A stretch of DNA of 24,000 nt from an uncultured Clostridia bacterium (GCA_934778205.1 CAKVOD010000004.1:40219-64218); one strand, 5' to 3'; shown: positions 1-20,051, counted from the stretch's first letter. Numbers and translations: made by a program. Notes: generated by a model not told the origin, from the sequence alone.

Positions 1-497
1 ATTATTTCATTTTGATACTTTGCCAAAAATCCTATTGCATTCTCTCCAAACTGCTCTATCAACCTATTTGTAAATTTATTATATACATCTTCTGGTCCAA
101 TTCTATTAGCAGATATATAAAATAAATTATTTTCTTCTATTAATCGAAATTGAGATGATAAGTCTTTACACATTATAGTCTTCCCATTGGGATTCGAACA
201 TAAAATCATTTTGCATGTTTCTTTTTTTTCATTAATTAGCTCTATTATTACATCTTTATCGGAAGAAATTGCAGCGTTCTTAATTTCTGTAAAATCATCA
301 AAATGCACAAATTTACCATTACTTATAAATTTTTCTTTATCAAGTTGATTGTTTTGTAAATGTATTAATATTGCTTGATTTACTGTTGATTTTCCTGATG
401 AATTAGGCCCACAAATAACATTAAAGTTTTTTAACACGATAGGAGGTGTTTTTTCATCAAAACATTTAAAATTTTTAATTATTATCTTACTTATCAT
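1..497 (-). CDS. P-loop ATPase (AAA_15/AAA_21-like), N-terminal ~165 aa only; the gene runs off the left edge
   Basis: My reverse-complement translation from the ATG at 497-495 gives MISKIIIKNFKCFDEKTPPIVLKNFNVICGPNSSGKSTVNQAILIH..., with Walker A GPNSSGKST and later ...LFYISANRIGPEDVY.... The frame stays open to position 1. It starts 10 nt after the stop of the DUF262 gene. It is absent from the ORF track because it is truncated. Confidence 0.75.
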   Translation of the reverse strand, partial: MISKIIIKNFKCFDEKTPPIVLKNFNVICGPNSSGKSTVNQAILIHLQNNQLDKEKFISNGKFVHFDDFTEIKNAAISSDKDVIIELINEKKETCKMILCSNPNGKTIMCKDLSSQFRLIEENNLFYISANRIGPEDVYNKFTNRLIEQFGENAIGFLAKYQNEI

Positions 498-506
498 AAT
501 CGTATC

Positions 507-2000
507 TTACCCTTTGTATTTGACAATGATTGTTTTAATCCACTTAATTCTTTGCTCAAAATTATCCCTTGAATCTCTATGATATTTAATATTTTGGAAG
601 AAAGGTGTATTTCCTTCTTTATCCACCTTTTCTTTTTCAAAATTGCGAAAATCTTCTAACATATTATTTAAATTTTCCAAACCAATCAAATTCTTTCTTG
701 CTAAACTAACAAATGTTAGTGATACCTCAAACAAAATCATATTTATTGGCGAATTATTCTCTAATCTGAATGCGTTTTGCCCCAAATATTTTAATGCGTC
801 TGAATATGATTGTAAAAAATCTTTTTCAATTTCATCAATCTGTTCGTCAGAAAAGGTATTAATTGCATCCATTGCTTCTGATAAAAAAGTATTTATTTCA
901 TTATACTCCACATTATGAGTAATTAATTTGCCATCATAATGTTTTAATTTGCCCTCAATATATAAACGCATTGCTATATATCTAAGCATTAAATACCTAT
1001 CTTTCATTCTATTTTTAGCGCTCAATGATAGAACATCTAATTCCTCAGATAATTTTTTCAACATATCCGTAATAGGTCCTTGATGCAAAGCGTGTCTAAG
1101 TTCTTGATTATTGAGTTTTATTCCCCCTTGATTTACTCTTTTGAATATTTGCAATTTGAATATTTCAGAAGTTTCAAATCCAACCCTAATAATATGCAAA
1201 TGAGCATCTTCTAATTTTGCTTTGTATTTTTCTAAATCTTCTGTTGAATTATTTGTCAAATCTCTACATTTTTTACCATTTAAATTCGTTAAAAATTCTA
1301 ATCCTCTTAGAGGATATTTATTATTTAAAAACTCAAATATAGCGGATAATCTTTGTCTCCCATCAATAACAATCAAGCTATTATTCTTGCCTTCATATAC
1401 GTAAATATATGGTATAGGAATTCCCAATAAAAGACTTTCTATTAATTGGCTTTTTTTCACGGAATTCCAAATGTTGTTTCGTTGAAATGTTTCATTAAGT
1501 ATAATTGCTCCAGAGCTACTACCAGAAAGAGTTCTATCATATCTTCTTTTTAACTCATAAACAGAATAATTCACTGGCTCACATTCAACATATTTCTTCT
1601 GTATATCATCAAAATTATTATCGTCATAATCATCACAAGACAAATCTTCATCTATCGTAGCTTCAGTATATGTATCAGACAACTTATTTTGATTGTATAA
1701 ATAGTATTCTGATGCAAATAAGCGTTGTTCACCCTCATTATTAATTGTCATAGTTGATAGATTTGAATCATAATCAACAAATCGTGGGTAGATTTTTTTG
1801 TGAGAAATTAAATTCCTTACTTTTTGACTAAATCTAGTATCTTTTCTTCCAAACAATATTTCAGCATCTTCACCTTGTGGATCTAAAACTTTTATCAATG
1901 ATTTTACTAAATCACTTGTCGTGATTGTACCTCCAACTCTATAAATTTCAAACAAAGCTGGATCTATCAATTCTTCTTCACAATATCTTTTTTCTTCCAT
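507..2000 (-). CDS. DUF262 (ParB/Srx-fold, GmrSD N-terminal-half-like) protein with an extra ~140-aa N-terminal region
   Basis: 497-aa ORF. DUF262 signatures are ETFQRNNIWNSVKKSQLIESLLLGIPIP and VIDGRQRLSAIFEFL, then NQGGIKLNNQELRHA. I saw no DUF1524/His-Me nuclease motif in the C-terminal half. Strong RBS AAGGAG 6 nt upstream of the ATG at 2000. Confidence 0.8.
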   Translation of the reverse strand: MEEKRYCEEELIDPALFEIYRVGGTITTSDLVKSLIKVLDPQGEDAEILFGRKDTRFSQKVRNLISHKKIYPRFVDYDSNLSTMTINNEGEQRLFASEYYLYNQNKLSDTYTEATIDEDLSCDDYDDNNFDDIQKKYVECEPVNYSVYELKRRYDRTLSGSSSGAIILNETFQRNNIWNSVKKSQLIESLLLGIPIPYIYVYEGKNNSLIVIDGRQRLSAIFEFLNNKYPLRGLEFLTNLNGKKCRDLTNNSTEDLEKYKAKLEDAHLHIIRVGFETSEIFKLQIFKRVNQGGIKLNNQELRHALHQGPITDMLKKLSEELDVLSLSAKNRMKDRYLMLRYIAMRLYIEGKLKHYDGKLITHNVEYNEINTFLSEAMDAINTFSDEQIDEIEKDFLQSYSDALKYLGQNAFRLENNSPINMILFEVSLTFVSLARKNLIGLENLNNMLEDFRNFEKEKVDKEGNTPFFQNIKYHRDSRDNFEQRIKWIKTIIVKYKG

Positions 2001-2010
2001 AAAAAACTCC

Positions 2011-3132
2011 TTAATAATTCATAATAATTAAATGCTTTACTTCTTTTTTGTTCCTATTTTTAAAACTTACAAAATAAGATTTGTTCTCTTCTATTATTCT
2101 TAATCCCTTATTTATATACAAACTTTTAATGAAATCTGTCTCTTTTATAACCAGCATAAAACGACATTTGCATTCATTTGTTAAATAATTAGCCAGTCTT
2201 ATTTGATCTTCCATCCCAAACGCATTCTTATCATATTCACTAAATGTAGTATCATATGGCGGATCTAAGAACATAAAGTCATTAGAATTAATTTCTATAT
2301 TATTTACGAAATCATAGAAATCATTTGTAGATAACGCGGTATTGTTTAATAATTCTCGCAAACTTTTTAATTTATAATAGGCTAATTTTGTCTTTAAAGT
2401 TTTTTTGTTATAAGAAACTCCTCCATATGGCACATTGAATCCTCCATTACTATTAAATCTAAACATAGAAGAATAACAATACTCCCTTATAAATAAATAA
2501 ACTGCAACCTTCCTTTTATTATCCAATCCTGCATACTCTTTAGGATTATTATAAGCATCTCTTAAATAAGTATAATATGCTGATTTAATACCTGCCTCTA
2601 AGTTGTTTTTTAACTCTTCACCTTCCAATTTTCTTTCTTTTTTTATCTCATTCTTTTTGATTAAGTTTATCCTTCTCAAAAGGCATTCTGATAAATATTT
2701 CTCAAACTTCACATTATTTCTTAAATTGAACATTGGTATATCATCAATCTTTTCATTTATAATTAAGCTTAAATCACTGGATATTTCTAAATTCTCATTT
2801 TCTCTAAATCTTAAATATAAGTTCATTAATCTTACATCATTTGCTAATTCTGTAAGCTTATCCCAATTTTGTATAATGTTTGTCAATTCATCAAAAAACG
2901 GTTTGCTATGGCTCTTTACATATTCGTATAAAAGCATTAACTCTTCTGATTTGTCATTTATATAATTTTTATTGTTGTTCGCCAAAGCGAAATAAACCGC
3001 TCCCCCGCCTACAAACGGCTCTATGTAATTATTAATCCCTTGTGGTAAATTATCAAGTATAATATTCAACTCAGATGTTTTCCCCCCAGGATACTTTAAT
3101 AACGGTTTTAAATTTTTATCTATATACATCAA
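2011..3132 (-). CDS. D12-class (Dam-like, alpha-type) N6-adenine DNA methyltransferase
   Basis: 373-aa ORF. N-terminal LKYPGGKTSEL and IEPFVGGGAVYF (AdoMet motif I), C-terminal FLDPPYDTT (catalytic motif IV). The track start at 3132 is TTG; the next codon (3129) is ATG, and either could be the real start. Confidence 0.9.
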   Translation of the reverse strand: MMYIDKNLKPLLKYPGGKTSELNIILDNLPQGINNYIEPFVGGGAVYFALANNNKNYINDKSEELMLLYEYVKSHSKPFFDELTNIIQNWDKLTELANDVRLMNLYLRFRENENLEISSDLSLIINEKIDDIPMFNLRNNVKFEKYLSECLLRRINLIKKNEIKKERKLEGEELKNNLEAGIKSAYYTYLRDAYNNPKEYAGLDNKRKVAVYLFIREYCYSSMFRFNSNGGFNVPYGGVSYNKKTLKTKLAYYKLKSLRELLNNTALSTNDFYDFVNNIEINSNDFMFLDPPYDTTFSEYDKNAFGMEDQIRLANYLTNECKCRFMLVIKETDFIKSLYINKGLRIIEENKSYFVSFKNRNKKEVKHLIIMNY

Positions 3133-3161
3133 TTAATTATAATCTCCTCTTTATATACTAT

Positions 3162-3170
3162 ATTATAGCA
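3162..3170 (-). promoter_or_regulatory. Possible extended -10 promoter (TGCTATAAT) for the methyltransferase operon
   Basis: The minus strand reads ...TTTATGCTATAATATAGTATATAAAGAGGAG..., about 30 nt upstream of the start codon. No good -35 element was seen. Confidence 0.35.
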
Positions 3171-3430
3171 TAAATATTTTTTATTTGCTTTGTTTTTATC
3201 ATTTTTTTTTATTGTATCATAATTTTTTATTTAAAGTCAGTTTTCAGCAATAACTTCATAGCAATATTAATTTTGTAGATGGTTTTAATGGTCTCAAAAT
3301 GGATGAAAATATTTACGTATATATTGCACACTTTTTACAAGCAAAAAATCATTATTGTTTTGCTTAAGCATCAAACTTACAATGCCACAACGAAATTTTG
3401 TAACTAAAATATTGATTAATTATTTCTGCA

Positions 3431-3676
3431 ATGCTCACGCATAAATGCTTGAAAAAATCAAATACTATTTGTATGAAAGAAATCGAAACAATTGAAAAAA
3501 CAAATTTTGAACTGAGTGAACTAGAAAAGCAAATTTTAGATGAACACACCGAAAAGACTGCTCAACAACTGGCTCATTACATTGAATTAAAACGCAAAAA
3601 ATTGTATCTAAAGAAAAAACTCAGCGACCAACGCGTTGAGTCTATTAAATCGGAACTCAAAGATTCCCTAAAATAG
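3431..3676 (+). CDS. Small hypothetical charged/coiled-coil protein (81 aa, or 67 aa from the internal MKEIETIEK)
   Basis: It is the only plus-strand ORF in an otherwise empty gap and is convergent with tatD. The sequence is Lys/Glu-rich. I found no convincing Shine-Dalgarno for either ATG. Confidence 0.3.
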   Translation: MLTHKCLKKSNTICMKEIETIEKTNFELSELEKQILDEHTEKTAQQLAHYIELKRKKLYLKKKLSDQRVESIKSELKDSLK

Positions 3677-3690
3677 TATTGTTATTATAC

Positions 3691-4482
3691 TTAATCAATC
3701 TTGAAAAACAATTGTTCAGTGTTTTGCTTCGTAATTTCAAACACGCGTTCAATGTCCACGCCTTTGATTTGCGAAATACATTCGGCAACATAATACACGT
3801 TTTTCGGCTCATTAGGCTTATCGCGCATTGTGCGTGGTGACATATACGGACTATCCGTTTCAATCAAAAGCCTATCAAGCGGAATATAGGCGAGCGCTTC
3901 ACGCAGATGCTCGTTTGTTTTGTATGTGACGTTACACGTGAACGAAATGTTAAACCCCAAATCAAGCGCCCTTCGCGCTTTGTCCTTGTTCCCGCCAAAA
4001 CAGTGCATAACTCCGCCACGTTTTGGATAAATATTATTTACTGCTTCAAAAAAGTCACTATATGAATCCCAATGCGATGAAAAATCAACGCCATCACGTA
4101 TGTGAAATATAGCAGGTAAATCAACTTCATTACACAAACTCAGTTGTCTTTCAAGCACTTCTATTTGTTCTTTTACTGGCGAAAGATTGTAGAAATAATC
4201 CAATCCAAATTCGCCAAGCGCAACAACTTTATGATTGCCTGCATTTTGCAAAATGAACTTTTCACAATTAGCGTCAAAATTCTTTGCATCGTGCGGGTGT
4301 ACCGCAAGTGCTGAATACACCTTTTCATTCTTTTGACTTAAATCAAATGCTTTTTGCATACTTTCATAGTCACAACTAGGAATGATGACATAATCAATGT
4401 TGTCATTTGCAAAATTTGCGATTATTTCATCACATCGACTGCTAATTTTTTCGTCATATAAATGACAATGGCTATCAACCAT
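3691..4482 (-). CDS. tatD: TatD-family metal-dependent hydrolase/DNase
   Basis: [10 protein letters not shown]... N-terminus, ...GEFGLDY..., ...HCFGG..., ...LLIETDSPYM. The track start (4488) is TTG. The ATG at 4482 follows AGAGG and overlaps the upstream stop as TAATG. Confidence 0.9.
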   Translation of the reverse strand: MVDSHCHLYDEKISSRCDEIIANFANDNIDYVIIPSCDYESMQKAFDLSQKNEKVYSALAVHPHDAKNFDANCEKFILQNAGNHKVVALGEFGLDYFYNLSPVKEQIEVLERQLSLCNEVDLPAIFHIRDGVDFSSHWDSYSDFFEAVNNIYPKRGGVMHCFGGNKDKARRALDLGFNISFTCNVTYKTNEHLREALAYIPLDRLLIETDSPYMSPRTMRDKPNEPKNVYYVAECISQIKGVDIERVFEITKQNTEQLFFKID

Positions 4483-4904
4483 TAACAAACCTCTGAACCA
4501 CTTGCAATTTCACCCTCAGGGCTAACAATCTTAAGTTCATCGTCATTTGACGCGCAAAGAATCATTCCTTCGCTGACAATTCCACGCATTTTTCGCGGTT
4601 GCAAGTTTGCAACAACAACGACGTTTTTGCCGACCATTTCTTCTGGCGTATAAAACTTTGCAATCCCACTAACGATTGTGCGAACTTCGTCGCCGATTTG
4701 AATTCTCGATTTCAATAATTTGTCCGCATTTTCAACCTTTTCACATTCCAAAACCTTGCCGACGCGCAATTCAACTTTGAAAAAGTCGTCAATTGAAATT
4801 CGAGGCATCTTTTCTTCTTCTACTTCATTGTTTTCGGTTGCTAGCTTTGCTTCCATCTCTTTTTTTGCACATTCAGCGCAACAACATTTCTTTTCTTCTT
4901 CCAT
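4482..4904 (-). CDS. Stand-alone tRNA-binding (EMAP/Trbp111/CsaA/MetRS C-terminal-like) domain protein
   Basis: 140 aa. [80 protein letters not shown] matches the OB-fold tRNA-binding domain. RBS GGTAAGGAGA lies upstream of the ATG at 4904. Confidence 0.85.
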
Positions 4905-4924
4905 AATAATCTCCTTACCCGCAT

Positions 4925-4953
4925 AGTATACACTTATTTACTTAATAAGTCAA
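4925..4953 (-). promoter_or_regulatory. Sigma-A-type promoter for the tRNA-binding-protein/tatD operon
   Basis: Minus strand: TTGACT (4953-4948), 17 nt, TATACT (4930-4925), about 20 nt upstream of the RBS. Confidence 0.5.
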
Positions 4954-5041
4954 GCGGACTTTGACATCATAGCGTGCTACTTTGGTGTAGCGCGATAATT
5001 TCGCTTGCTATTATAAACGTTATTCACATTGTATTCACAAT

Positions 5042-5075
5042 CAAAAAACAAGCCGTGTTTTTATGGCTTGTTTTG
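5042..5075 (-). terminator. Rho-independent terminator after the CotF-like gene pair
   Basis: Minus strand: AAAACAAGCC-ATAAAAACAC-GGCTTGTTTTTTGATTG. A 10-bp stem runs into a T tract, about 60 nt after the stop at 5134. Confidence 0.6.
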
Positions 5076-5133
5076 CTCTTTGCTATAGATTAAGCAATTA
5101 TTGTAGATTATGCAATTATTATTGTTTACTTGA

Positions 5134-5418
5134 TTATTCTTCGTTTAGTTTTGTTTCAAGTTCTGATTGCATTTGCGTGTGCATTTTGATTGCTTGGTTT
5201 ACATCTTTTGTTTGTGCGACCGTTGTTGGATAGAACCCCTTGTCGTTCATAATCTTGAACACCTTGAAATCCTGTTCCGACGATGCTTTTGAAAGGTCGC
5301 TAAATAGATTTCTTAGTGTGGGATTGCTACATTCAAGCCCAAACTGACAGTACATATGCAACATAAATTTTTGTGCGATTAGCACATCTTGCAAAATTTC
5401 TTGTTCAGTTAATTCCAT
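5134..5418 (-). CDS. Spore coat protein F (Coat_F domain) family protein
   Basis: LTEQEILQDVLIAQKFMLHMYCQFGLECSNPTLRNLFSDLSKASSEQDFKVFKIMNDKGFYP fits the Coat_F pattern. The start is re-set to the ATG at 5418, which is preceded by GGGGGA. The track start at 5442 overlaps the upstream gene. Confidence 0.75.
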   Translation of the reverse strand: MELTEQEILQDVLIAQKFMLHMYCQFGLECSNPTLRNLFSDLSKASSEQDFKVFKIMNDKGFYPTTVAQTKDVNQAIKMHTQMQSELETKLNEE

Positions 5419-5419
5419 A

Positions 5420-5632
5420 TTACTTTCCCCCTTCCTGCGCATTTGATTTTACATACGAAAGCAACTTTGCGTGATTGTCGTAATGCACTTGTGCCATTGA
5501 TTTAAACAGATTTGCGGTGCTTTTTTCAACTGCCATCACGCTATAATTTTTCAATTTGACAGCCAGCCAGTTCTCAAATGTCATCAACTCATTGAGCGCC
5601 ATTAGGTCTTTTGTGGTAATTTCTTTTTTCAT
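5420..5632 (-). CDS. Small Coat_F-like partner protein (70 aa)
   Basis: Helical protein ...LMALNELMTFENWLAVKLKNYSVMAVEKSTANLFKSMAQVHYDNHAKLL..., 1 nt upstream of the CotF-like gene. The ATG at 5632 is preceded by GGAGG; the track start at 5644 is GTG. Confidence 0.6.
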   Translation of the reverse strand: MKKEITTKDLMALNELMTFENWLAVKLKNYSVMAVEKSTANLFKSMAQVHYDNHAKLLSYVKSNAQEGGK

Positions 5633-5679
5633 AATAACCTCCACAAAAAGTTTTGACTTATTTACTAAATATATTCACG

Positions 5680-5718
5680 CAAAAAACAAGGACACAGAAT
5701 AATTTGCTTTGTGTCCTC
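5680..5718 (-). terminator. Rho-independent terminator after the 96-aa gene
   Basis: Minus strand: AGGACACA-AAGCAAATTATTC-TGTGTCCT followed by TGTTTTTTGCG. Confidence 0.65.
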
Positions 5719-5732
5719 AAAATTATATACAA

Positions 5733-7609
<1,877 letters not shown>

Positions 7610-7676
7610 TTTCTACCTCCGTTAGTTATATTATACCCTATTCTATTTTTTTTTCAAAGCGTTTTGCAAACTATAT

Positions 7677-7706
7677 CAAAATAAGGACAGAATTCCACCG
7701 TCCTTA
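7677..7706 (-). terminator. Rho-independent terminator after the GLUG surface-protein gene
   Basis: Minus strand: TAAGGAC-GGTGGAATTCT-GTCCTTA followed by TTTTGATAT, about 15 nt after the stop at 7722. Confidence 0.6.
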
Positions 7707-7721
7707 TGCTATTTTTTCATA

Positions 7722-10289
7722 TTAAATCACTATCCAATTGTTGACATTTCCAGCGCCAGAAATAGTTATCGTGATATTTGTATCGGCAGTAACACCGTTC
7801 TCATATATTTTCTTGCGCGTTGTTTCCGTTACGCCAGCGGTTGCGTCATTGAACGTGCAAACCGAATACAATGTCTCATATACCATTATTGAAAACTTGG
7901 TACTTACTTCGATTTGAAAGGAATAACTTTTGCCATTTTGTGCAACAACTTGCCTTGTCGGATTGTTGTCCGCATCCAAAATGTACACAATAAAATCTCT
8001 ATCAATTTTTATATCAAAAGTGATTTGTACATATTTTGTTGTTGAAGGCGTTGTACTTTCTTCCCAGTTAGCGGTGTACAATTTATTTCCATATCCTGAA
8101 ACACGCATATTTAGTCTCTTAGTACTACTTGTTGGACTAGTCCACCCCGTGAAAGTATAGCCTGATTTCACAGGTGTTCCTAAGTAAAATCCACTTGTAC
8201 TATTAGTATATGATGTCACCTTATTAGAAAGTATACCGCCGTCTAGATTGTAGGCAATTATATACTCAATATCTCCAAATCCAACATCTTTGACATAAAT
8301 CGTAGCATCACTATCCCCCGCAGTATAATATGTGATAGGGTTAGTGCCATCTTCGTTGAGCGAAAAAGTTGCAGAGATGGTCTTTTTCCCTATCTTACTA
8401 TATAGGTTTATCTTTGATAAATTAATCAACATTCCTTTTTTCAAAGATATACAACTAATAGTATTAGAAGATGATGCACTAGATTCATACTTAAATGACA
8501 ACGTAACTGTATCAAATTTCAAATAAGGGGCACCATGCCCGTTACCATACTCATCACCATCACTTCCGTCATTTTGAAAATCCCAAACCGTATCAAAATT
8601 CCACGAATAATTTGCATCCCAATGTGTGGATGCCGAAAATTGCGACTTATTGTGCGCTAAGGCATCTAGCTCTGTTTTGCTTTTTCTAACAACATTATTA
8701 AACGTATTGGCGTCACCCGCTGATATCCTTCCACCACTTGAATCATCTAAGCATATGCCACTAATGTTATCCCCATAAGATGTTGTTCCTGCCATATATC
8801 CCCAAAATTGAGTACCTATAAAAGCTGTCCCATTACCATTCCATGGTATAAAATCAACAGCATTCAAGCATTGCTGAATTTTCGCACCTAAAGATAAATA
8901 TCCCGCAATTCCACCCATATATACGGACACTGTCATATTTGATGGGGGTTCACATAGTCTTATATAATTGACACAATTTACGATAATTCCATTATCAATA
9001 TATCCTACAATCCCACCTATACTAGATCCATTTGACCCCTTAAAATACTCCGACACGCTCACTATGGTGCCATCGCCGACACAATTGCTCACGATAGAAG
9101 ATTCAGTTGTCACTTTTCCGACAATACCCCCCACAAAAAGCCCATCACCATTACTGCGACCACTCAAATTCATATTGACCCATCCTCTACTATTAGACAC
9201 TTTGCCTCCTTCCGATAGTCCGACTACGCCACCTATATAAGTCATATCTCCATAATAGATGCCATCAGCGCTACATGAACCACTAGACTTTTCAACGGTA
9301 ACACCACTTCCAATTTTACCGGCGATACCACCTAAATAACCGTCTTTACATCTATCTACACTTGGCGAATTATTGCTAAAGCAGCCGCTTATAGTCCCTT
9401 TGATCATTTGCCCGATAATACCACCGCTATAAATATCATATCGATCCACTATCCGATTCACCTCAATCGTAGCACAGTTAAAACAATTAGTGATATTTAA
9501 TGTTCCGCCTCCGCCTTGAGAACCAACTATTCCGCCGACATATTCGGCCTGTTGTCCAGAATCGTAAAAATAAATCGTTCCATAATTGTGACAATTTTCT
9601 ATATTAACACTTCCACTACTACCAATTTGTTGTACTGCTCCAACTATTCCGCCTGCTTGCGAACCCCCTGAAATTATAATTTCAGCCGTGTTATAACAAT
9701 TTTTTATTGTTACTGTTGAAGAATTAGGCCGCAAAAAAACTTGCTTCGCAATTGCTCCAATAACAGCAGTTGAAGTAGGGCTAATTGTCCCTCCTATTCC
9801 TACATTCAAAATCTGCGCACCAGAATTCAGTCTAACAAATAATCCATTATAAGCACTATCAAAAGTGATTACTTTGTTATTGCCATCAAAAATGCCATTA
9901 AAGCTTGAAATCCCGTCCCAATGCATCTCTTCCCCAACAACTATATATGTTGCAGGAACGCTAATGTCGGCAGTCAATTTGTATGATTTATCTAAAAGCG
10001 TATTTCCGCTCGCATCGGCACCTCCCTTCAAATATAGCAATTGCTCAAAGGTTGCAATTTGATATGGGTTTGATTCCGTACCGTCGCCAGCGGCAAAACT
10101 CGTTGCGACATTGACAGTGTTTGCACTATCCACTGAGATTGTTTTCTGTGGATTTTTTGCTGTGTTCAAAGTGATTGCAAGCACCAAGCCGACACACGAC
10201 AAAACCAACAAAAGCCACAGCACGATTTGAACTGGAGCGAATAGGTGTTTATTCAGTTTTACATTGTTGTTTTTGTTGAGGTTTTTCAT
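7722..10289 (-). CDS. Large signal-anchored surface protein with GLUG-type repeats and a Listeria-Bacteroides (Flg_new) repeat
   Basis: 855 aa. The N-terminus is basic then hydrophobic (LFAPVQIVLWLLLVLSCVGLVLAITL). At least 8 G-G-I/V-V/A-G motifs are present (AGGIVGAV, VGGIVGSQ, SGGIIGQM, LGGIAGKI, IGGVVGLS, VGGIVGKV, IGGIVGYI, MGGIAGYL). YNLDGG...GYTFTGWTS is typical of the Flg_new repeat. RBS GGAGGTG lies upstream of the ATG at 10289. Confidence 0.85.
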   Translation of the reverse strand: MKNLNKNNNVKLNKHLFAPVQIVLWLLLVLSCVGLVLAITLNTAKNPQKTISVDSANTVNVATSFAAGDGTESNPYQIATFEQLLYLKGGADASGNTLLDKSYKLTADISVPATYIVVGEEMHWDGISSFNGIFDGNNKVITFDSAYNGLFVRLNSGAQILNVGIGGTISPTSTAVIGAIAKQVFLRPNSSTVTIKNCYNTAEIIISGGSQAGGIVGAVQQIGSSGSVNIENCHNYGTIYFYDSGQQAEYVGGIVGSQGGGGTLNITNCFNCATIEVNRIVDRYDIYSGGIIGQMIKGTISGCFSNNSPSVDRCKDGYLGGIAGKIGSGVTVEKSSGSCSADGIYYGDMTYIGGVVGLSEGGKVSNSRGWVNMNLSGRSNGDGLFVGGIVGKVTTESSIVSNCVGDGTIVSVSEYFKGSNGSSIGGIVGYIDNGIIVNCVNYIRLCEPPSNMTVSVYMGGIAGYLSLGAKIQQCLNAVDFIPWNGNGTAFIGTQFWGYMAGTTSYGDNISGICLDDSSGGRISAGDANTFNNVVRKSKTELDALAHNKSQFSASTHWDANYSWNFDTVWDFQNDGSDGDEYGNGHGAPYLKFDTVTLSFKYESSASSSNTISCISLKKGMLINLSKINLYSKIGKKTISATFSLNEDGTNPITYYTAGDSDATIYVKDVGFGDIEYIIAYNLDGGILSNKVTSYTNSTSGFYLGTPVKSGYTFTGWTSPTSSTKRLNMRVSGYGNKLYTANWEESTTPSTTKYVQITFDIKIDRDFIVYILDADNNPTRQVVAQNGKSYSFQIEVSTKFSIMVYETLYSVCTFNDATAGVTETTRKKIYENGVTADTNITITISGAGNVNNWIVI

Positions 10290-10373
10290 TACATCACCTC
10301 CACAACGCGGGCGTTGTTTACGACAATGCTGAAAGGACTCAAATTGAGGCTTTTATGGCTTTTGGTGGATAGA

Positions 10374-10433
10374 CCCCTTCCGGGAGATTTCTCCGCTGCA
10401 GCGAACAAGTTCGCTTTCGGTCGAAATGACAAA
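10374..10433 (-). repeat. Interspersed three-hairpin element, copy A (in the 5' leader of the GLUG gene)
   Basis: The plus strand reads CCCCTTCCGGGAGATTTCTCC-GCTGCA-GCGAACAAGTTCGC-TTTCGGTCGAAATGACAAA. The conserved flanks are identical to copy B at 22466-22529. Confidence 0.6.
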
Positions 10434-10584
10434 AAGAATGTACGCTGTCCGTCCTCCATTGTTTGGCACTCAAGTTCAATATCAGTGCAAGAGTCGTTTT
10501 CAATTGCTTGCGAGTCTTGTAAATATTGCAAGTTCTTGCAGAAATGTTGTTGTTTTTCGCAGTTTAACCTATCAAAATAATAGG

Positions 10585-10638
10585 TTAAACTACATACCCC
10601 CCCCCCCCCATTCGTGGAGCATTTGTTCTATTATTCAT
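10585..10638 (-). promoter_or_regulatory. 17-codon leader ORF containing the G13 tract (MNNRTNAPRMGGGGYVV*)
   Basis: RBS GAGGTG, 6 nt, ATG at 10638. The G tract begins inside codon 10. With 13 G the frame stops at TAA 10587-10585. Confidence 0.45.
10597..10609 (-). repeat. Homopolymeric tract, 13 G on the coding strand (13 C on plus)
   Basis: Counted directly from the sequence: ...tacata CCCCCCCCCCCCC attcgtgg.... Confidence 0.95.
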
Positions 10639-10670
10639 TTGTTTCACCTCACTTAATGAATTATAAATTT

Positions 10671-10699
10671 AGTTTACCACAATTATGAAAAAATATCAA
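10671..10699 (-). promoter_or_regulatory. Promoter of the GLUG-gene leader (TTGATA-17-TGGTAAACT, extended -10)
   Basis: Minus strand: TTGATA (10699-10694), 17 nt, TGG TAAACT (-10 at 10676-10671). Two TGCAAAA direct repeats 11 bp apart lie just upstream (plus strand 10703-10720). Confidence 0.55.
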
Positions 10700-10814
10700 A
10701 TGTTTTGCAGTATTTTTGCACTTTTTGTGAAAATGTTAATTCCCTGTTAATTCTCTATTGATTCTCAACGTGCTATTTTGATAGTTGCAAGCACGTGATT
10801 TTATCTAGACATCA

Positions 10815-10847
10815 ACAAAAAACACTCAAATGGTTTTGTTTGAGTGC
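10815..10847 (-). terminator. Rho-independent terminator after the CNNM transporter gene
   Basis: Minus strand: CACTCAAA-CAAAACCA-TTTGAGTG followed by TTTTTTG. Confidence 0.65.
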
Positions 10848-10947
10848 TTTTATAAAGCAATTTAGATGCTTATATATTGATCTTAAATATTCATTTATAT
10901 ATTTATTGATTAATCCTATTCCGTTACAGCCCGCACTGAAACTGCCG

Positions 10948-12336
10948 TTATTGCTGTTCAGAGGCGCTGGCGTCGCGCGTCAACTTTTCTTCATTGTTCA
11001 AAATTTCAGTTGTAATCAAAACGCGACGAATACGATTATTTTCGACCTTTATCAACTTAAAATGCAATGCGATTGCAACTTCATAATAGTTGGCATCATC
11101 ATCGACGCGCTCGTCGATTGTGACAAAGTCCAAAACTTGGTCTTGCTTTGGCAAACTTTTTTCGGCAAGTTCAAAAAGGAACGCGCCGAGGCTTGAATAG
11201 TTGTTGCTTGGTAAGTGTTCTATGCCCAAATTCTTAAAAAGTTCTTCAACTTCTATTTCAGCATCAACAACATATTTATTGTCGTCAATTTTTTCAAATT
11301 CTGTCGACTTCACTTCGTCGTGTTCGTCGTAGATTTCGCCCCAAACTTCCTCAATCGCATCTTCAAGCGTGATGATACCATTCGTTCCGCCGTGTTCATC
11401 GACGACAATTGCCATATGCTTCTTCTCTTTTTGCATTTGACGAATCATATCATCTAGTTTCATATTTTCATTGACAAACATTGGTTTTGAGATGCACGCG
11501 GAAATGTCAACTTGTTGCTCCAAAAATATTTGCGACGCCAAATCTTTTTCACTCAAAATGCCGATGATATGATCCATATCCTCATCATATACTGGCAATC
11601 TTGAAAACTTTGTACTTACAAACACATTCTTTATGTTCTCAATACTCTCGTTCTTTTCAACAGCCGTAACGTCAACGCGTGGCGTCATTGCGTTGTAAAC
11701 AATTTTTTGGTCTAGGTCAAGAACCCCTTGAATCAAATCGGCGTTCACGCTGTCAATGACCCCTTCTTCCTCCATTGTGTCGATGATGCTTTCAAGTTCT
11801 TCTTCAGTAACAGTTGGCGTTTGCGCGCCTTTGTTCTTTCTCAAGAGCGCCTTTTGTAACTTGTTAAACAAATATGTTATTGGCATCAAAATTTTTATGA
11901 CGACAAACAGTGCGCCCGAATATCGTAACGCAACTTTTTCAGCATTTTGTTTTGCAAGCGCCTTTGGCGTGATTTCGCCACAAATAAGCAAAACAATTGT
12001 CATTACAACGGTGTTAAGAATGTTTGACAACGTTGGATTTGCAATTGCTGACGAAATCAAGAATGCACAAATGGTTGTCGCGCCGATGTTGACAAGGTTG
12101 TTGCCAACCAAAATCGTCGACAGTGCTATGTCATAGTGGTCACAAATCCACACGGCTTTACGCGCGCCTTTGACCTTTTCATCCGCATAGTGCTTCATCC
12201 GCATACTATTGACCGATGTGAACGCCGTTTCGCACCCACTAAAAAATGCTGAACACAAAATTAATAATACAATGACTCCACTGAGTATTGTGTTTACTTC
12301 CCACGATAAGCATAAACAACTGGGGGGAACTGTCAT
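10948..12336 (-). CDS. CNNM/HlyC/CorC-family transporter (DUF21 + CBS pair + CorC_HlyC)
   Basis: 462 aa. FFSGCETAFTSVN and GNNLVNI in the membrane DUF21 part, a CBS region (MTPRVDV..., RLPVY...IIGIL), and the CorC-type C-terminus ...KKHMAIVVDEHGGTNGIITLEDAIEEVWGEI.... Confidence 0.9.
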   Translation of the reverse strand: MTVPPSCLCLSWEVNTILSGVIVLLILCSAFFSGCETAFTSVNSMRMKHYADEKVKGARKAVWICDHYDIALSTILVGNNLVNIGATTICAFLISSAIANPTLSNILNTVVMTIVLLICGEITPKALAKQNAEKVALRYSGALFVVIKILMPITYLFNKLQKALLRKNKGAQTPTVTEEELESIIDTMEEEGVIDSVNADLIQGVLDLDQKIVYNAMTPRVDVTAVEKNESIENIKNVFVSTKFSRLPVYDEDMDHIIGILSEKDLASQIFLEQQVDISACISKPMFVNENMKLDDMIRQMQKEKKHMAIVVDEHGGTNGIITLEDAIEEVWGEIYDEHDEVKSTEFEKIDDNKYVVDAEIEVEELFKNLGIEHLPSNNYSSLGAFLFELAEKSLPKQDQVLDFVTIDERVDDDANYYEVAIALHFKLIKVENNRIRRVLITTEILNNEEKLTRDASASEQQ

Positions 12337-12561: not shown

Positions 12562-15500
12562 CTAACCGAGATAATAATCGGTCATTTTGTTTATTAAACA
12601 ATTTGTAATCAAGCCCATTCCATCTGCATTAGGATGCACTCTATCTATTGTATAGGTGCTTGCCGTTTCAATATTTATTCCGCTATCAGCATAAACATCT
12701 ACAACAGGGCAACCATAGTGCGTCGCGATTGCTTTTATGATATCATTAAATTCATTGATAACTGCAGTTGGATTTACATTGCCGTTGTAATCTTTGTAAT
12801 TTGCATTATTATCCACAAATCCCGCATAATGAATTGTCATACAAAATACGTCTGCGCTACTATATTTTTGCGTCATTTTATAAATCATTAGAGCGTACGC
12901 TTCGTCAAATGACGACGGCACTGTCAGTGTTCCGTTTTCGATTTTCGTAAATAGGTCATCCGTCACAACTTTGTGCGCAACTGGACTACCTAATTGACAA
13001 AAGTCGTTCGTACCCATAAATACAGCGATTACGTCAGGCTGTTTCCCTGTGTTGTCATTGTGAAGATTTACTGAACGCGTATTCCACGCCGAACTAGCAT
13101 CGGTATTGCCCGACCCTGACAAATAAGTATGCGAACCAGACCACGAATTGTTAACGCAAAGATTCATTCCAAGTTGATTTATCGTTCGCATCCACCATGT
13201 GTCATTGACTGAAAGTGTTTTCAAAATACCAGGATACGCTACAGCATTTCCACCAATTGTTGAGTTATACTTTGTGATGTTGTTGTATCCCGAATATGTG
13301 CTAATACTATCGCCCAAAATTGATAAACTTTTCCCTTTCAATACGCTTTTCACTGATTTAGTACCATAAAAACCAATCGGCAAATTAATTATATTAGTAA
13401 AATTTGTTTTTCCATTTATAGTTTTTATTCCTAAATTGCTTGAAATGACATCAAAATAATATACCAAAACAATTGTGTCTGTCGCTGAGCCAAAAGCCAA
13501 TGTTTGCCCTGACTTTACGCGAATATCAAGATTGTCAAACGTGACCCAACCACCTGTCGTGCTATAATTTTGCGTAAAAGCAGTAATTTGCGTGGCATTC
13601 ATTGTCAATTTTTGCGAACTAATTATTGTGTGCGAACCGTCCGTTTCGGCTTCAGCACCTACTATGTGCAAAGTAAATTCCGCTGAAGATGTTGAATTTA
13701 TTTTCTTTACTGGTAGTACAATTCTGTTTATAATCGTTTTTTCAAACATACTTGTGCCATACATCCAAATGAACTCATTATTAACAGTTAATTCCTTCCA
13801 TTTACTATCAGCTGAAACATCTAAATTAAACAATTGTTGCTCATTGACGCCAGTCAATGAATCAAGTGGCGTAACATCGTATTGCGTGTAGCCATATATA
13901 TCAATAACTAAACTATAATTTTGATATTTTTGCCCACTTGCCCACGAAGTAAAGGCACGGTCGGTGTTTGTATTCTTTGTCGAGTACAACAAAGTTATCG
14001 TGTCGTCACTCGCGCAAAATGCTATTGTTTGCTGGACGCCGACATCAATGTTTAACTCATCAAATGTCAGCCACACAGCGCATTTATCACTTGAAGTATC
14101 CGCCGTCTGTAGCGCTTTCCACTTCGCAATTTCACTTGCCGTAAGTATTAGGTTATAACTGCGCGCGACTTCTCCATTTGTGGTGTTGACAACACTGACA
14201 GTCAAAAAGGCGTTCAGATCATTTATTATATTATAAACAGGCACAACAAATTTTGTAATTGTTTTATTTTCAAACACCTTGCTATTTGAGTACGCAAATA
14301 ACCCGCTTGAGGAAAGATTGTTTAGTACGGCAAATTCTTGCGAATCAAGAGATAGTTTTGAACTTACAATTTCTTTCGCTGAGTTGCTTTGCAATAAGTT
14401 TGAGTATCTATCCCCTCTTTGAACATAGACATCAATAGGCAGTATACCACCTGACCACCCCAACCACGTTGGCGAAATCATTATTCGCTCAGTATCCTCT
14501 GTTCCGCTAAAAAATAGAATACCCATTGTTCCGCTATTCCAGCAACCAAAGGCGATTGTTTCGTCTTTTCCTACGTCAATGTTGAGATTGTCAAATGTTA
14601 TCCACGATTGTCGCTGAAAATTTTTGAACTGCGCTTCTGTAAGTGACAATTTGTGCGTCGAACGCAAGTAATCACTTTGAAACTCCGCTTGCTGCACGCC
14701 ATTTTCATATTCTTCGCCCTTGCTTCTATCAATTTTTTTGTTGATTACAAACAAGTTTATATAAGCGCCGCTTGCATTTGTGACTGATGCGTCGATTTGA
14801 TATATAGGTACAGTGAGTTTAGTTATTACCCTGCCCGAAATTCGATTCGTTATATCTTCATTGAAGCGCCAAATGTAATTGGGATTTAATGTTGCTGTAT
14901 CAGCAAATGTTTCATACTTCATAGCAATAGAATTTTGCATCAACAAATAGTCATTGCCCGACCGTCCATATATATCCAAAAGAAGCGAAGAACTTGTTAC
15001 CACCTCCCATGTTGTTTGAGATTCTGTATTTGTTTTACAAACATAATACGCATGAGATGAGTTCTCGTCTGCTATGCCATTTGCATAGCCTATTGATACT
15101 GTGTCCGCGCTATCCGTAAAGGCAAGTGTTTCATCGTTGCCAACAAGTATATTTAGATTACTGAACATTACCCACTTATTTTTGTCGTCCGCATTCCAAT
15201 CAATTATTTGTTCTTCACTCATTTCTAAGCGGTAAGTTCGCACAACGTCAAATTTTCCGCGAGTGGCTTTTATTACTTTAACCGTCCAAAACTTCACACC
15301 TGCCGATTCATTGATTGAATACACAGGCGCAACGATTTTTGTTATTAGTTTATCTTTGAATAAATCGGTATTTTTATAAACATATCCATTGACAGAAGAT
15401 GTCACGTTATCTAATTTTGTGGTCGCACTTTCGCCCAAAATATTGCTAGAAAGCCCAGTTGTTAATCTATCACTATAAGCAAAAACATCGAACATTAGCG

Positions 15501-19389: not shown

Positions 19390-19756
19390 GCAAAAATAAC
19401 GCAGAATTTATAATTTATTAAAAACATTTTTTCCCCCGCCTTTTTTTGTGCGTCGTCCACAAAATTTGCAAAAAAATACAATGCCTTTACAAAATCGCTT
19501 GACAATTTTCGACAATAGTACTTTATCTAGTTTAATATTCTAAATAACGTATCAACTATAATCATTTCTTATTTGCTCACAAATATTTCAACATAAACGC
19601 TAATAGCATAGAAAAAACCTTATAAAAAAAGCTGAAAAATTATATTTTTCAACTTAAATTTCATTTACCTAAATTTATTTTGAGAATTAAATTTTGCCAA
19701 ATAAATTACACTGACAAACAATTATTTAAAAAATAGTAGATTTTTACCACAAACTA

Positions 19757-19765
19757 TGTTATAAT
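19757..19765 (+). promoter_or_regulatory. Extended -10 promoter (TGTTATAAT) for the tRNA gene
   Basis: TG-T-TATAAT at 19757-19765, 20 nt upstream of the mature tRNA 5' end. Confidence 0.5.
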
Positions 19766-19785
19766 ATACGAGTAACGAACAAAAA

Positions 19786-19862
19786 GTTCCAATAGCTCAG
19801 CTGGATAGAGCGTCCCCCTCCTAAGGGGAAGGTCAGGGGTTCAAATCCCTTTTGGAACACCA
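19786..19862 (+). tRNA. tRNA-Arg (anticodon CCU), CCA-encoded
   Basis: I folded it by hand. Acceptor GTTCCAA/TTGGAAC; D arm GCTC-AGCTGGATA-GAGC; anticodon arm TCCCC-CTCCTAA-GGGGA (anticodon CCT); variable loop AGGTC; T arm AGGGG-TTCAAAT-CCCTT; discriminator A plus CCA. Confidence 0.93.
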
Positions 19863-19876
19863 AATTGAATTGATTT

Positions 19877-19908
19877 AGTAGATATTTTTTTATATCTACT
19901 ATTTTTAT
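19877..19908 (+). terminator. Rho-independent terminator after the tRNA
   Basis: AGTAGATAT-TTTTTT-ATATCTACT followed by ATTTTTATTT. Confidence 0.65.
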
Positions 19909-20051
19909 TTAGAAGTTTAACATTTTTTTACAAAGGTTTCATTTTTTTTAAGTTTCATTAATTTAAAAAAATGTTTCACCTCAAATTACGCAAAAATTAA
20001 TGCTTAGAGTACCAGCATTCAAAAGTTCTACTGAAAGTAGAGTTTTGGGGG

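Follow-up and report, generated by a model that had tools for sequence, protein, structure and literature searches.

A Menshen-type NsnA-NsnB pair in operon with a Dam-family methylase at the edge of a low-GC island in an uncultured Clostridia bacterium

Menshen is a defense system of three proteins, NsnA, NsnB and NsnC (Millman et al., 2022, as cited in Li et al., 2025), and the published survey of the family (Li et al., 2025; NAR gkaf357, PMC12065111) defined systems by these three components. In that survey NsnA joins a ParB-DUF262 domain to a DNA-binding domain termed ParBDB, and in the 23% of systems called "Type II" a further sensor domain, most commonly a winged helix, is present at its N-terminus. 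NsnB, an ABC ATPase, ends in a DUF3696 tail, and NsnC combines an inactive-PIN N-terminal domain with a C-terminal nuclease domain, the roles proposed for the three proteins being sensor (NsnA), transducer (NsnB) and effector (NsnC). The same authors report that 27.9% of Menshen operons adjoin BREX, Type I/III restriction-modification (R-M) or methylase genes, some of the methylases being solitary, and ask whether the solitary ones work with Menshen, with ParB-DUF262 targeting non-modified DNA. The system of Solibacillus silvestris is the only Menshen tested for anti-phage activity (Li et al., 2025), and our literature search found no experimental paper on the Menshen mechanism. Here, we describe a locus of this family at positions 1–3170 of a 24,000-nucleotide stretch of DNA from an uncultured Clostridia bacterium (GCA_934778205.1, CAKVOD010000004.1:40219-64218; hereafter the window), in which a Dam-family methylase, NsnA and NsnB form an operon. 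The NsnA-NsnB pair and the association of Menshen with methylases are already known, and the locus is a recognizable member of a named defense family. The novelty lies in a coherent sub-lineage in which a Dam-like methylase is obligate, NsnC is missing and NsnB has a C-terminal domain (C-domain) that belongs to no matched family; the text of the survey, its supplementary tables aside, describes no such methylase-linked lineage lacking NsnC.

An earlier sequence-only reading had picked out three co-directional genes about 10 nucleotides (nt) apart in an AT-rich island, and this outline holds. The genes are separated by 10 and 9 nt, all three lie on the minus strand (left unstated in that reading), and the GC content over positions 1–3500 is 25–29%. 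Shine-Dalgarno-like sequences precede the first two genes, those of the methylase and NsnA. Open reading frames (ORFs) of 372 and 497 amino acids (aa) in DNA of 27% GC, with hidden Markov model (HMM) E-values of 1e-22 to 1e-79, are far beyond chance. The first gene (2011..3129, minus strand; 372 aa, with an ATG start and a TTG at 3132) encodes a Dam-family N6-adenine DNA methyltransferase of the D12 class, as had been proposed. It matches Pfam MethyltransfD12 (PF02086, 2e-34, score 119.8 against a cut-off of 22), NCBIfam TIGR00571 "dam" (162.7 bits, cut-off 114.85) and PADLOC MTase_II (1e-57), and it carries both motifs quoted for it, EPFVGGGAVYF, with the AdoMet motif FVGGGAV, and FLDPPY, with the catalytic DPPY. 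Among proteins of solved structure, DpnM (6e-22) and E. coli Dam are the nearest to the methylase, which has ∼95 extra residues between its motif blocks relative to both.

The second gene (507..2000, minus strand) encodes a 497-aa protein with the "Type II" NsnA architecture, comprising an N-terminal domain, a ParB-DUF262 domain and a C-terminal helical domain. PADLOC NsnA is its best profile (1e-79, aa 114–494 on profile positions 28–381 of 385), with PD-T4-2_A as runner-up (5e-32). The central NTPase-like domain (1083..1517, minus strand, aa 162–306) matches Pfam GmrSD_N at 1e-22, which bears out the DUF262 assignment made from sequence, and its motifs I (FQRNNIW, aa 172–178), II (DGRQR, aa 213–217) and III (FKRVN, aa 286–290) are invariant in an alignment of 26 homologs, down to 40% identity. 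An AlphaFold2 model built on these homologs has a mean predicted local distance difference test score (pLDDT) of 84. Its N-terminal domain (1743..1976, minus strand, aa 9–86) has the DSSP topology H-E-H-H-E-E at a pLDDT of ∼85–90, and Foldseek returns local matches of ∼100 residues to the winged helices of MarR, PadR, F93 and FOXN1 with a probability of ∼0.9. The earlier description of this region as an Mrr-N-like winged helix was therefore right as to fold and is unsupported as to family: aa 1–100 give no Pfam match to Mrr_N (PF14338) at E ≤ 5, and 0 of the 120 NsnA homologs listed carries that annotation. The third helix, FSQKVRNLISH (aa 57–67), predicted to occupy the usual position of a recognition helix, is nearly invariant in the clade down to 40% identity, with F57, S58, Q59, K60, V61, R62, N63, S66 and H67 invariant in the 26-homolog alignment. 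Two further helices follow in the model, and then an acidic linker (1596..1676, minus strand, aa 109–135) that is disordered (pLDDT <50) and variable in both length and sequence. The C-terminal domain (510..1076, minus strand) lies inside the PADLOC NsnA profile and is helical over aa 309–496 (pLDDT ∼85–95). It is ParBDB-like, the name and the proposed DNA-binding role being those of Li et al. (2025), and contains a conserved YHRDS motif (aa 473–477) in which H474, R475 and D476 are invariant.

In the structural comparison, Foldseek ranks BrxU/GmrSD first for the whole NsnA model, ahead of ParB, Noc and Srx (sulfiredoxin); all E-values are weak, which is usual when the query has several domains. 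As DUF262 senses modified DNA in GmrSD and SspE (Li et al., 2025), this likeness could point to type IV restriction of the GmrSD kind, in which the DUF262 protein attacks modified phage DNA and the ATPase assists. However, the protein has no DUF1524 or other nuclease, in agreement with what had been noted from the sequence: Pfam finds GmrSD_N alone, and all 120 homologs listed carry PF03235 only. Its best profile is that of NsnA and not GmrSD, and, with N6-methyladenine as the signal, a methylase conserved in the operon would turn the system against the cell itself. We regard this explanation as extremely improbable.

The third gene (1..497, minus strand) is cut by the window edge, which leaves the 5′ part of an NsnB-like ABC ATPase, aa 1–165 of 458. 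The fragment matches Pfam AAA_15 (5e-12) and PADLOC NsnB (2.5e-30) and contains a Walker A motif, GPNSSGKST (nt 384–410), and ANRIGP (aa 130–135), in which Arg replaces the Q-loop Gln; the call of an ATPase from these two motifs was sound. An identical NsnA is encoded on 16 metagenome contigs, most of them derived from human gut samples, and two of these, L001 and L002, are 100% identical to window positions 1–12000 and therefore reveal the DNA to the left of the window. The full-length, 458-aa NsnB read from L001 matches PADLOC NsnB at 1.2e-66 over profile positions 1–307 of 345, and beyond the window it adds IIIENPE (Walker B with EN), NTGSG (GxG) and ETHSDH. The C-terminus that had been expected, DUF3696 (PF12476), Toprim or OLD, is absent: none of the three matches the C-terminal part of the complete protein. 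NsnC is likewise absent from the extended contig, no third gene directly following NsnB and the next gene lying 212 nt away. Given the high polymorphism of NsnC, a cryptic copy on that contig was also considered and is unlikely.

With these assignments, the suggestion that the core of the trio is an unnamed system falls, since the PADLOC profiles name the pair NsnA and NsnB of Menshen, an outcome that the sequence-only reading had itself set down beforehand as a refutation. The NsnA-NsnB locus is very probably a Menshen-family module. It would probably escape rule-based callers in which the presence of all three Nsn genes is required.

We compared 80 genome loci found via the NsnA alignment, together with four extra contexts, by calling ORFs and comparing them with phmmer. 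Ordinary Menshen loci encode an NsnA of ∼370–400 aa, an NsnB of ∼335–375 aa and a third protein of 230–330 aa, mostly with a gap or overlap of a few nucleotides. A D12 methylase belongs to the operon in 10/10 independent loci of the clade with a winged-helix NsnA, as against 1/47 other NsnA-NsnB loci (Fisher p = 2.5e-10, with kinship among loci ignored). The co-occurrence of the trio in other genomes, posed as a check by the earlier reading, thus extends to every independent clade relative. The methylase gene lies directly upstream in nine of the ten loci, at gaps of 2–14 nt; in L087 (Erysipelothrix), it is found at the 3′ end of the operon. In L088, the three genes stand by themselves with only housekeeping genes as flanks, a tRNA synthetase gene on one side and transporter genes on the other. 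Linkage to the methylase within the winged-helix NsnA clade is strict. The linkage as such is not new, as the proximity of Menshen to methylases, solitary ones included, was reported by Li et al. (2025).

The clade is divided by the form of its NsnB. In L010, L013 and L087, NsnB is short (350–361 aa), that of L010 spanning the NsnB profile end to end (positions 1–344 of 345, 5.5e-89), and a gene of 292–294 aa follows at −4 to +7 nt. The three downstream genes are homologous to one another, with a weak C-terminal match to Gp49/ParE toxins in L010 (E 0.02), a faint precomputed Gp49 match in L087 and none in L013; judged by its sequence, this gene is NsnC-like, of the kind described by Li et al. 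(2025). The long form of NsnB (437–458 aa) is found in L001, L008, L009 (the same locus as L090), L011/L012, L088 and L089, and in truncated form in L007, and no conserved downstream gene follows it across the loci compared. In the long form, the DUF3696 tail is replaced by a conserved C-domain of ∼135 aa. Among 110 NsnB homologs, the motif R[NH]x[IV][DH]HP of this domain is present in 44/44 long proteins (≥425 aa) and 0/66 short ones. An alignment of 22 C-domains has E16, L33, D50, L90, R95, H100 and P101 invariant; in full-length numbering, the invariant residues include E333, D367, R412, H417 and P418, with H347 nearly so. AlphaFold2 predicts a confident, mostly helical fold with a β-hairpin (pLDDT 87, predicted template modeling score 0.82). 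In a tree of the ATPase core, the long NsnB proteins fall into two clades, one of them sister to the short 350-aa forms of the methylase-linked clade, which suggests that the effector end has been exchanged.

The C-domain extends far beyond Menshen. An exhaustive HMM search places it in 919 clusters at 50% identity (492 at E ≤ 1e-10), almost always at the C-terminus of 430–520-aa proteins bearing ABC ATPase motifs, and the ATPase parts of these other proteins resemble PtuA and AriA. A search of the profile against a collection of 5.8 billion proteins returned one fragment. In 49 metagenome loci encoding C-domain ATPases, there is no recurrent neighbor, and neither NsnA nor a D12 methylase stands beside them. 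Because the domain occurs on solitary ATPases and also replaces "DUF3696 tail + NsnC" in orthologous operons, the simplest reading of it is an effector, a role that we consider plausible while giving it somewhat less than an even chance. The stand-alone ABC ATPases of ∼450–500 aa (L091–L170; P0242–P0385) share GENGxGKT, LSSGEKQ and a C-terminal "TLPTYIRNxIDHP", and they may constitute a single-gene defense or toxin family.

A different role for the C-domain is that of a docking or oligomerization module for an effector encoded elsewhere, as the C-terminal domain of PtuA binds PtuB. Such a role would fit AlphaFold3 models in which the short form of NsnB docks NsnC via its C-terminal tail, the PtuA- or AriA-like ATPase parts of the wider family, and the lack of any catalytic family among the matches of the domain. 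We nonetheless consider docking unlikely: no conserved partner gene lies beside long NsnB or beside the 49 metagenomic ABC ATPases that carry this domain, and the invariant polar residues E, D, R and H (a second H nearly so) resemble an active site more than an interface. The R412-x4-H417 spacing, invariant in the C-domain, recalls HEPN RNases at the level of the motif alone; with sequence searches and Foldseek empty, a HEPN identity based on R-x4-H is speculation.

The absence of NsnC from the extended contig, together with a transposase fragment 1.3 kb downstream of NsnB, might instead mark a decaying Menshen remnant, inactive after the loss of NsnC, with the long NsnB C-terminus a meaningless read-through. 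Sporadic domain loss is mentioned by Li et al. (2025), and the related locus L007 has an N-terminally truncated NsnB that lacks the Walker A end and is preceded by a gap of 256 nt, probably a pseudogene. Long NsnB is, however, a deep family, with 44 clusters down to 31% identity and intact ATPase motifs; its C-domain motif is invariant and folds confidently in the model, and at least six independent contexts show this arrangement of three genes. Decay of the present locus is very improbable.

We therefore favor, as the probable account of positions 1–3170, a horizontally acquired, methylase-coupled Menshen-type module that is gated by methylation, lacks NsnC and uses the C-domain of NsnB as its effector. 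In this scheme, the methylase would mark the host's own DNA at a target site. NsnA would scan DNA by means of its winged helix, ParB-DUF262 and ParBDB domains and would be triggered by unmarked incoming DNA. By analogy with the ParB-to-ATPase comparison that Li et al. (2025) draw for the switching on of NsnB by NsnA, an NTP-dependent switch in NsnA would activate an oligomer of the NsnB ATPase, and the NsnB C-domain (E333, D367, R412, H417 and P418, with H347) would then act, probably as a nuclease, in place of the NsnC RNase. The R-M-like logic that had been proposed from the sequence is in this way retained as the best hypothesis, given a trio that co-occurs in all ten loci, although its DUF262 and ATPase pair is not undescribed. 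As a separate element of the scheme, gating of the Menshen module by methylation is, on the comparative evidence, slightly more probable than not gating. A more far-reaching version, in which the three genes are a self-contained module derived from Menshen, the winged helix reads the unmethylated site, and an undescribed effector domain fused to NsnB also arms the lone ATPases of the 919 clusters, is rather doubtful.

Several observations weigh against this scheme. The idea that the winged helix would be the more conserved through co-evolution with the methylase found no support overall, the NsnA N-terminal domain being no better conserved than the core (50.6% versus 52.4%). The methylase diverges more slowly than its partners (mean pairwise identity 59%, versus 52% for NsnA and 43% for NsnB) and its divergence tracks theirs loosely (r = 0.4–0.5, versus r = 0.84 between NsnA and NsnB). 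In the related mobile elements of L007 and L011 (compared over L007 6786–10857 and L011 6877–10737), the backbone is 83–89% identical and the methylase 74%, whereas NsnA is 40% and NsnB 34% identical; on this evidence, the methylase could be part of the element backbone. The sensor-ATPase pair would there have been exchanged, or would have diversified much faster than the methylase. As to the effector, relatives of the C-domain are absent from Pfam, PADLOC, a profile search of PDB sequences, and Foldseek searches of PDB and BFVD, and both the effector role and any HEPN-like reading of the R-x4-H motif are inferences.

These divergence data, the second D12-like methylase that L007 and L011 both carry upstream, and the status of BREX, R-M and methylase genes as ordinary island neighbors of Menshen in the survey cited above would also suit a plainer explanation, namely an ordinary Menshen operon beside an unrelated methylase, an orphan or mobile-element enzyme with an anti-restriction, epigenetic or replication role, sensing being independent of methylation. 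Yet the linkage persists in all ten loci, with tight gaps in nine, across unrelated flanks that include housekeeping genes; the methylase stays in the operon despite the changed gene order of L087, and the rate elsewhere is a single D12 methylase in 47 loci. An unrelated methylase is an unlikely explanation, though one with an appreciable share of the probability. The L007 record is labeled Alistipes finegoldii, while most other taxon-labeled members of the clade are Bacillota.

The clade offers a minimal test case for the proposal that Menshen reads methylation, with three genes, an obligate methylase, no other nuclease and one member set between housekeeping genes. If gating by the methylase is real, Menshen would rank with BREX, DISARM and MADS among R-M-like systems whose restriction side is non-classical, and DUF262 proteins would prove to respond not only to the presence of a mark but also to its absence. 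The C-domain of NsnB, common on ABC ATPases, is a candidate new effector and, if the more far-reaching version above is correct, would be a new and widespread effector domain for single-gene ATPase defenses.

To the left of the window, the order after NsnB on L001 is a 212-nt gap, a 233-aa ORF, the transposase fragment, a convergent R-M pair, integrases and a KilA-N gene. Leftward extension, which the earlier reading had named as a check, brings no restriction endonuclease (REase) or specificity (S) subunit into the operon, which consists of the methylase, NsnA and NsnB only and has no helicase subunit either. The separate R-M pair (L001 14793–16980, on the strand opposite to the operon) lies ∼1.9 kb past NsnB; in it, a 360-aa DUF262-HNH protein (PADLOC REase_II 6e-137) is accompanied by an EcoRI-like adenine methylase of its own (Pfam 5e-129). 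Two distinct DUF262 proteins thus lie within 5 kb on L001.

The 233-aa ORF (L001 13093–13794) is preceded by a promoter-like site (13002–13030, 11/12 matches plus TG), the best of the region, though the scan overall is at the level of shuffled sequence. The ORF matches nothing in Pfam, PADLOC, PHROGs or PDB sequences, and it is confined to this strain group and absent from related loci. As a cryptic NsnC, it was rejected on its lack of a family match, its 212-nt distance, its own promoter-like site and its restriction to one strain group. A nucleotidyltransferase-like "GSAGKRH...FDLDYN" (GS...DxD) was seen in it by eye only.

The methylase-NsnA-NsnB operon sits within the low-GC block of positions 1–3500, in contrast to 31–48% GC in nearly all of the remaining window, and on L001 low GC (26–30%) covers ∼9.5 kb. 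With integrases, the R-M pair and continued low GC to its left, the block in the window is therefore the edge of a larger defense island or mobile element. A search for attachment-site direct repeats over the near part of the island found only short repeats at chance level. The AT-rich region upstream of the operon (3133..3430, with no strand assigned) is the right-hand portion of the low-GC island and contains a ribosome-binding site, AGGAG; in the promoter and terminator scan, matches in the region are no more frequent than in shuffled sequence, and so no promoter is claimed here.

Next to this region, between TatD and the operon, an 81-aa lysine/glutamate-rich ORF (3431–3676, plus strand) lies at the GC transition, on the strand opposite to the operon. 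It is predicted by gene callers in every contig covering the position, and its sole family match is a weak PHROG (0.004). The other genes of the window are housekeeping genes, encoding TatD, a tRNA-binding protein, enolase, CNNM/CorC, NrdD/NrdG and an ExoIII-like protein, with a DnaB-like gene at the far end. Since the remaining genes are only of this kind, no restriction endonuclease, S subunit or defense helicase is found among the genes of the 24,000-nt window, as the sequence-only reading had stated for type I, II and III systems.

Farther into the window, positions 7898–10423 are a strain-variable segment. Contigs L003 and L004 are 97.5–98.8% identical to the window over aligned segments, and in them an 855-aa ORF with Flg_new repeats (7722..10289) is swapped for other genes, of 130 aa and 647–661 aa. 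A second stretch of 25% GC (19501–20000) is intergenic and bears a tRNA-Arg(CCT) (19786–19862, plus strand), and gene strand and GC skew flip there; an HTH + AAA_28 (NadR-like) gene follows the tRNA, which is unconnected to the island at 1–3500.

Observed/expected (O/E) ratios of 4-bp palindromes were computed under a second-order Markov model for host core DNA (window 3701–24000) and for island DNA (window 1–3500 and L001 8501–18000). The host core is depleted in five of them, GGCC (0.11), CATG (0.12), GATC (0.18), AGCT (0.24) and CCGG (0.24), with the other eleven at 0.75–1.13; in island DNA CATG and GATC are avoided, GGCC and AGCT less so. By its sequence composition, the lineage seems to be exposed to heavy pressure from type II restriction. 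Depletion of GATC as a clue to the specificity of the methylase was dropped, being uninformative because GGCC, CATG, AGCT and CCGG are likewise depleted.

Compared with described systems, the locus is closest to Menshen. Its NsnA has the ParB-DUF262 domain with all three motifs (QRxxxW, DGxQR and FxxxN), the helical C-terminus and a winged helix; its NsnB has the Walker B EN, the Q-loop Arg and GxG; and the order of A then B with translational coupling, the defense-island setting and the methylase neighbors known from the literature are also shared. It departs from Menshen in having no NsnC gene, in an NsnB that carries, in place of the NsnC-docking DUF3696 tail, a ∼135-aa domain unmatched in searches, and in a methylase that is an obligate operon member in this clade rather than an occasional neighbor.

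The candidate effector end has its nearest parallel in PrrC, RloC and the Gabija protein GajA, an analogy that Li et al. (2025) draw for NsnB. In these ABC ATPases, a C-terminal nuclease domain is under the control of the ATPase, and the gene for PrrC lies inside a type I R-M locus. Likewise, an ABC ATPase and a C-terminal candidate effector are joined here in one polypeptide and tied to DNA modification. In contrast, no sequence or fold relation of these proteins to the C-domain is shown, and a separate DUF262 sensor is encoded upstream here. GmrSD, BrxU and SspE resemble this NsnA in having a helical DNA-binding domain after an NTPase-like DUF262 sensor domain, BrxU being the top structural match; they differ in the DUF1524 His-Me nuclease, which NsnA lacks, and in the ATPase partner and linked methylase found here, the latter arguing against modification-dependent attack. 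PD-T4-2 (Vassallo et al., 2022) also contains DUF262 and gives the second PADLOC match of NsnA, but at 5e-32 this is far weaker than the NsnA match at 1e-79, and the ATPase partner matches NsnB. Finally, classical type II R-M systems with a Dam/DpnM-like methylase have the same methylase family and the same upstream, self-marking logic; in place of a recognizable REase in the operon, the candidate restriction side here is the sensor-ATPase pair.

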